Part shown: piece by piece, positions 46,608 to 46,814 of the stretch
How the letters are laid out: the number at the start of each line of letters is the position of its first letter
Position numbering within the stretch: the first letter of the stretch is position 1
From: Escherichia coli
Lineage (GTDB): Bacteria > Pseudomonadota > Gammaproteobacteria > Enterobacterales > Enterobacteriaceae
Direction: 5' to 3' (one strand)
Length of the DNA stretch: 64,000 bases
Assembly (NCBI RefSeq): GCF_002854065.1
Contig: NZ_CP024147.1
Position numbers and translations under genes: made by a program
The notes under the pieces: generated by a model
What the model was told of the DNA's origin: nothing
Seen by the model: the letters and a program-made list of their open reading frames with translations, nothing else
The model's database searches: none

Positions 46608-46614
46608 GTAAAAG

Positions 46615-46640
46615 AGCCGGCCCAACGGCCGGCTTTTTTC
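46615..46640 (+). terminator. rho-independent terminator after aceF
   Basis: agccggcc caac ggccggct followed by tttttt. Confidence 0.7.
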
Positions 46641-46814
46641 TGGTAATCTCATGAATGTATTGAGGTTATTAGCGAATAGACAAATCGGTTGCCGTTTGTT
46701 GTTTAAAAATTGTTAACAATTTTGTAAAATACCGACGGATAGAACGACCCGGTGGATAATGGGCGTCATAAAAAAAACGTCAGACCCGCCGGAGATAAAT
46801 ATATAGAGGTCATG

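Follow-up and report, generated by a model that had tools for sequence, protein, structure and literature searches.

Enterobacterial repetitive intergenic consensus (ERIC) elements, also called IRUs, were reportedly described by Sharples and Lloyd in 1990 and by Hulton and colleagues in 1991. An ERIC/IRU is a miniature inverted-repeat element (MITE) of ~127 bp that has terminal inverted repeats and is flanked by TA (PMC3184786). The general properties of these elements, including their variation from strain to strain in E. coli, are set out in PMC3184786 and PMC10969869, and the latter cites Wilson and Sharp (2006) for ERICs being present in some E. coli strains and absent from others. Searching the literature for ERICs together with lpd or aceF, we found nothing specific to this locus. 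A second class of palindromic, repetitive, extragenic and transcribed sequences, the REP/BIME elements, is built from units of ~35 bp with another consensus. A third comparison is offered by the 5′UTR hairpins of the ompA type, stabilising or structured stem-loops at the 5′ end of enterobacterial mRNAs.

In this report, we examine the spacer between aceF and lpd in a 64,000-nucleotide stretch of E. coli DNA (NCBI RefSeq contig NZ_CP024147.1; hereafter, the window), drawing on pairwise and multiple alignments, RNA folding, searches of complete E. coli genomes and a sample of the same locus across the Enterobacterales. The reading that we favor, to which we assign a probability of roughly 90%, is that the window has an allele of this spacer that lacks an ERIC and that the allele of E. 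coli K-12 has an ERIC in the apex of the lpd leader hairpin, with the host sequence around it rearranged.

The aceF-lpd spacer of the window

The upstream gene is named aceF by the RefSeq annotation beneath the matching hits. Its stop codon at 46605-46607 and the lpd ATG at 46815 (MSTEIKTQ..., with the ORF ending at 48239) delimit a spacer of 207 bp, 46608-46814 (Table 1). The corresponding coordinates in MG1655 (NC_000913.3), 127587 for the end of aceF and 127912 for the first base of lpd, leave 324 bp between the genes, 117 bp more than in the window. A preliminary description of this DNA had noted that the spacer seemed shorter than that of MG1655 and put the gap at roughly 100 bp; both statements agree with the lengths found. 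The ORF list also contains a 495-aa frame initiated at a GTG (46752-48239), which only continues the lpd frame upstream, across the leader; the true start of lpd is the ATG, yielding a protein of 474 aa that matches the RefSeq genome annotation.

A difference in length between two assemblies might arise as an artefact of gene-boundary calls or from an assembly error. This explanation is excluded, as the window and K-12 use the same stop and start codons, their flanks are base-for-base identical, and thousands of independent complete assemblies reproduce each allele. A 607-bp query spanning the spacer has 100% identity to O157:H7 and to several other E. coli chromosomes.

Table 1. Features of the aceF-lpd spacer and its borders in the window (positions are those of the 64,000-nucleotide stretch).
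Feature	Position	Strand	Basis or remark
aceF stop codon TAA	46605..46607	+	End of ORF 44715-46607, 630 aa
aceF intrinsic terminator: stem GCCGGCC/GGCCGGC 46616-46633, loop CAAC, T6 46634-46639, upstream A-run	46610..46639	+	Fold
lpd promoter, sigma-70-like: -35 TTTAAA 46702-46707, 17-bp spacer, -10 TAAAAT 46725-46730	46702..46730	+	Promoter scan
Inferred lpd 5′UTR, 78 nt (K-12: 195 nt)	46737..46814	+	Start near G46737 inferred by homology with K-12
Predicted leader hairpin: outer stem CCGGUGG 46749-46755/CCGCCGG 46786-46792; inner stem GGCGU 46762-46766/ACGUC 46777-46781	46749..46792	+	Minimum-free-energy fold
Allele-specific 30-bp segment ATAATGGGCGTCATAAAAAAAACGTCAGAC, apex of the hairpin without interruption	46756..46785	+	Alignments; 1,990 E. 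coli genomes
Ribosome-binding region and lpd start codon (AGAGGTCATG ATG)	46803..46817	+	Pattern shared by at least 120 Enterobacterales species

The spacer begins with an intrinsic terminator for aceF, conserved across the Enterobacteriaceae in a multiple alignment, whose hairpin folds with -23.4 kcal/mol (z = -5.0; none of 200 shuffled sequences was as stable). The terminator scan returned this hairpin on the - strand only, and the T-run that follows it on the + strand was read from the sequence. Downstream lies the sigma-70-like lpd promoter, the sequence of which is identical in K-12, with a GTTAACAATTTTGTAAAAT block conserved across genera. In K-12, the published lpd start site is separated from the ATG by a leader of 195 nt (PMC2759082); it corresponds to position 418 of our extracted K-12 locus (L001) and to 46737 of the window, 7 nt past the -10 box; judging from this homology, lpd transcription in the window strain probably begins near 46737 as well. 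The terminator and the promoter region had both been placed in the spacer by the preliminary description, rightly so given a hairpin followed by six T residues and promoter boxes that fit the K-12 start site. The variable site begins 19 nt downstream of the inferred start, and thus past the promoter, which places the indel in the lpd 5′UTR.

The short leader is predicted to fold into a hairpin with an outer and an inner stem, and the same outer stem closes the much longer hairpin that the ERIC forms in the fold of the K-12 leader. Among 46 diverse short Enterobacterales leaders, the outer 7-bp stem is the only consensus structure obtained with RNAalifold. The stem is highly conserved in sequence and has a single compensatory pair in the 46 sequences, so that its structural support is modest and we do not claim the predicted hairpin as a functional RNA motif. 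Across the lpd 5′UTRs of the Enterobacterales (loci L007-L126), this conserved outer stem CCGGUGG/CCGCCGG encloses a hypervariable apical region. Like the ompA-type stem-loops, the lpd hairpin would start close to the 5′ end (~13 nt) and precede an A/U-rich linker and the Shine-Dalgarno sequence; unlike them, it is a predicted structure with no Rfam family and little covariation, and it is absent in four genera. Searching both alleles against Rfam 15 returned no family at the gathering threshold, the sub-threshold hits being driven by the terminator (e.g., OrzO-P, 31.9 vs 60 bits) or, for CssrA, falling on the K-12 ERIC.

Nature of the additional sequence in K-12

In a pairwise alignment, the window and K-12 agree at every base on either side of the variable site, upstream over 30 nt of the aceF end and 148 nt of the spacer, downstream over the final 29 nt of the spacer and the start of lpd. 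Between these flanks, the 30 bp of the allele-specific segment are exchanged for ~147 bp in K-12 (L001 437-583), within which an ERIC occupies approximately L001 457-581. The change between the two alleles is therefore a replacement, not a clean indel. An alignment with the MG1655 spacer had been proposed as the way to check the preliminary description, and it finds that length and sequence differ between identical flanks; the indel suggested there does account for the difference in length, with the qualification that some sequence was exchanged as well.

The K-12 element is an ERIC/IRU of 125-127 bp, a long imperfect palindrome. Its core contains the sites of the two standard ERIC-PCR primers back to back, ERIC1R at L001 497-518 (- strand, two mismatches) and ERIC2 at L001 519-540 (+ strand, one mismatch), and neither was matched in any of 200 shuffled sequences; the primer sequences were confirmed in the literature, where the two occur together in 246 papers. 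A 129-bp segment of K-12 is dispersed through E. coli genomes, which contain it at 2-16 places each (median 9, E <= 1e-3), and it aligns with copies between rpsB and tsf, between pgk and fbaA, near ybiT and in an integrative element (between mobH and ardC). Homology among these copies runs from ATACCC to GGGTAT, ~125 bp. A single extended hairpin is predicted for the K-12 lpd leader (-91.7 kcal/mol, z = -6.3), and the element is both intergenic and transcribed, lying between the lpd start site and the ATG. The K-12 allele thus resembles the described ERICs/IRUs in length, in its imperfect palindrome, in its diagnostic central core and dispersed occurrence, in its position in a transcribed spacer beside highly expressed genes and in its strain-variable presence. 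The window, by contrast, has the empty-site allele, and at this locus strains lacking the ERIC carry another short sequence in its place, not a simple gap. Although the terminal ATACCC...GGGTAT of the K-12 ERIC are present, the junctions in Escherichia are rearranged; with no legible target-site duplication and with the right arm of the host hairpin missing, the exact point of insertion in Escherichia is ambiguous.

The preliminary description had also suggested, as a possibility, that an element of the REP type was absent from the window. A repetitive extragenic element of K-12 is indeed absent, and, like a REP, it is palindromic, repetitive and located in a transcribed spacer. Its length of ~125 bp, its two ERIC primer sites and its alignment with other ERIC copies nevertheless leave a REP/BIME element with next to no probability. 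The REP consensus applied here has no match, with up to three mismatches, in the spacer of K-12 or in the sequence on either side of it.

Within the 64-kb window, the ERIC2 primer has no match with up to three mismatches, and blastn with five ERIC copies returns only chance matches of 12-22 nt (E >= 0.26). The spacer of the window is shorter because K-12 has an ERIC in the lpd mRNA leader and the window strain has none there. The Rfam model of CssrA, a Shigella sRNA, gives a sub-threshold hit to the right half of the K-12 ERIC (L001 528-628, 26 vs 93 bits); the CssrA family may have been built on ERIC-derived sequence.

ERICs in the lpd leader of other Enterobacterales

We collected the locus from one genome per species with a pattern made of the 10 nt of the lpd ribosome-binding site and a degenerate Lpd N-terminus. 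This yielded at least 120 Enterobacterales loci, a sample that leaves outside E. fergusonii, E. marmotae and E. ruysiae under those names, and Salmonella enterica subsp. enterica. Among the 120 loci listed, the lpd leader ranges from 46 to 291 nt, and an ERIC lies within the leader hairpin in 14 species, always in the same orientation (L009, L022, L027, L028, L055, L062, L084, L091, L096, L097, L099, L107, L120 and L123). The ERIC-bearing leaders belong to Escherichia (four lineages), Entomohabitans, Raoultella and Enterobacter JUb54, MGYG-HGUT-00110, three Serratia species and two Erwinia species. Both arms of the host hairpin are intact around the ERIC in Raoultella, MGYG-HGUT-00110, Serratia and Erwinia, and these intact arms, together with junctions that differ between lineages, indicate several independent insertions. 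The cleaner of these insertions (Serratia, Raoultella, MGYG-HGUT-00110) lie in A/T-rich loop sequence beside TA.

Three further observations concern individual lineages. The ERIC of Serratia oryzae holds an additional internal insertion of ~70 bp. That of Entomohabitans teleogrylli (L084) is ~83% identical to the Escherichia copy and shares unusual junctions with the long Escherichia allele (left GGGTAT..ATACCCTATGG, right GGGTATG(A/G)CCGCCGG), a sequence resemblance that suggests a shared old insertion or a transfer between the genera. Finally, four leaders of only 46 nt, from an Enterobacter MAG, Cedecea davisae, Silvania and Leclercia (L018, L082, L093 and L098), are identical to one another (CCCGGTGG-ACGACGGGTAT-AAATTAAGAGG) and retain only the right terminus of an Escherichia-type ERIC; such a leader looks like the remnant of a deletion that also took out the hairpin. 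As these four genera do without it, the hairpin is dispensable.

Distribution and polarity of the two alleles

When 5,426 complete E. coli genomes were searched with allele-specific queries, 1,990 proved to have the short allele and 3,433 (63%) the long one, in every case as a single copy. Strains with the short, 207-bp spacer include O157:H7, O55:H7, ST131/JJ1887, LF82, ST95, SMS-3-5, 042 and IAI39, and those with the long, 324-bp spacer include K-12, BL21, SE11, O26, O111 and O121. We take the sampled short strains to represent phylogroups B2, D, E and F, with 042 as the presumed example of phylogroup D, and the sampled long strains to represent A and B1. The difference is a species-wide, phylogenetically structured polymorphism of two alleles and is not strain-specific, as the preliminary description had supposed; taken as a whole, the interpretation offered there is partly supported.

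Outside Escherichia, short spacers are found in Salmonella arizonae (202 bp), Citrobacter (199-210 bp), K. oxytoca (207 bp) and Kluyvera (206-207 bp). In a multiple alignment, the 30 bp of the window align with the corresponding sequence of C. freundii, K. oxytoca and Kluyvera, in which GGGCGT is followed by a short A-rich loop and (A/G)CGTCAGAC; similarity to Salmonella is weaker. This homology to the uninterrupted hairpin of the outgroups makes the window allele the uninterrupted, ancestral type, a term that refers here to the type of sequence and not necessarily to the E. coli population. Within the genus, the spacer is long in E. albertii (322 bp) and in E. whittamii, Escherichia sp. E1V33 and strain E69 (324 bp each), and short in 'E. 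coli' SCPM-O-B-8794 (207 bp), whose lpd is 96% identical to that of the window. With four of the five sampled non-coli Escherichia lineages carrying it, the ERIC allele within the genus is at least as old as E. coli. Both alleles thus occur outside E. coli proper, and their coexistence probably goes back either to a long-standing polymorphism or to recombination that moved alleles between Escherichia lineages.

The long spacers of E. albertii, E. whittamii, E1V33 and E69 might also be read in the opposite direction, with the window lineage having lost an original ERIC and the 207-bp spacer being a derived deletion, e.g., one induced by the palindrome. ERIC deletion does occur at this locus, as Leclercia, Cedecea, Silvania and the Enterobacter MAG keep only the right terminus ACGACGGGTAT. 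The products of these deletions differ from the window allele, however, being 46-nt leaders without a hairpin, whereas the 30 bp of the window form a complete hairpin homologous to the uninterrupted sequence of Citrobacter, Klebsiella and Kluyvera. Moreover, the right arm, (A)ACGTCA, is missing from the long Escherichia allele, and removing the ERIC from that allele could therefore not recreate the short one. A divergent member of the genus (L035), whose lpd has 96% identity, also has the short spacer, with an identical 30-bp segment. A loss in the window lineage is largely refuted by these features, and we regard it as very improbable.

Functional implications

In the arrangement that we favor, an ERIC-free window allele beside an ERIC-bearing K-12 allele, the lpd promoter downstream of the aceF terminator would start a short leader of ~78 nt, in which the outer CCGGUGG/CCGCCGG stem would surround an apical GGCGU...ACGUC stem-loop. 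In the long allele, an ERIC/IRU miniature inverted-repeat element of 125-127 bp sits inside the apex of this hairpin, in host surroundings that have been locally rearranged by loss of the right arm and divergence of the left; with it, the leader reaches 195 nt and the spacer 324 bp. Being palindromic and placed in a loop, the ERIC simply extends the predicted hairpin, and neither the promoter nor the ribosome-binding region nor the initial 18 nt of the leader is altered. Such insertions may be tolerated at the lpd leader, and may recur there in other genera, because they only lengthen the hairpin, and we infer that the insertion is near-neutral.

The two alleles may instead differ in function, the leader ERIC altering the stability or translation of the lpd mRNA and the split being kept or spread by selection. 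The spacers of E. albertii (L009) and K-12 (L127) differ at 1 of 322 aligned positions and their ERICs are identical at 127 of 127, compared with a difference of 12.8% at third codon positions of lpd, a disparity that would be consistent with selection. In Yersinia, ERICs can change mRNA decay via RNase E (PMC3184786, PMC10969869). The divergence profile, on the other hand, is low for ~600 bp into both gene ends, which fits a recombination tract or constraint on the promoter region, and the hairpin has proved dispensable in the four genera that lack it. The near-identity of the E. albertii and K-12 spacers could possibly stem from a recent recombination tract or from selection or constraint on a regulatory region. 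The common orientation of all 14 lpd-leader ERICs among the 120 loci listed also points towards selection, but these 14 trace back to only ~5-6 independent events, and the bias in orientation is therefore not significant. A functional difference maintained by selection is therefore, in our estimate, an unlikely though arguable account of the two alleles. More doubtful still is the broader proposal that the lpd leader hairpin is a 'landing pad' for repeated insertion of ERICs in one orientation, that the Escherichia copy is selected and that the A/B1 versus B2/D/E/F split is functional in the post-transcriptional control of lipoamide dehydrogenase.

The finding is a known kind of polymorphism, ERIC differences between strains being already documented, and its importance is low: it explains a gap in length relative to the reference genome. 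It provides a marker linked to phylogroup, 207 bp in the sampled strains that we assign to B2, D, E and F and 324 bp in those that we assign to A and B1. Studies of lpd regulation in K-12, where the leader is 195 nt long and contains an ERIC, may not transfer directly to O157:H7 and ExPEC strains, with their leader of 78 nt. Overall, the recurrent insertion of ERICs into a single conserved hairpin of the leader neatly illustrates the sites at which these elements are tolerated.
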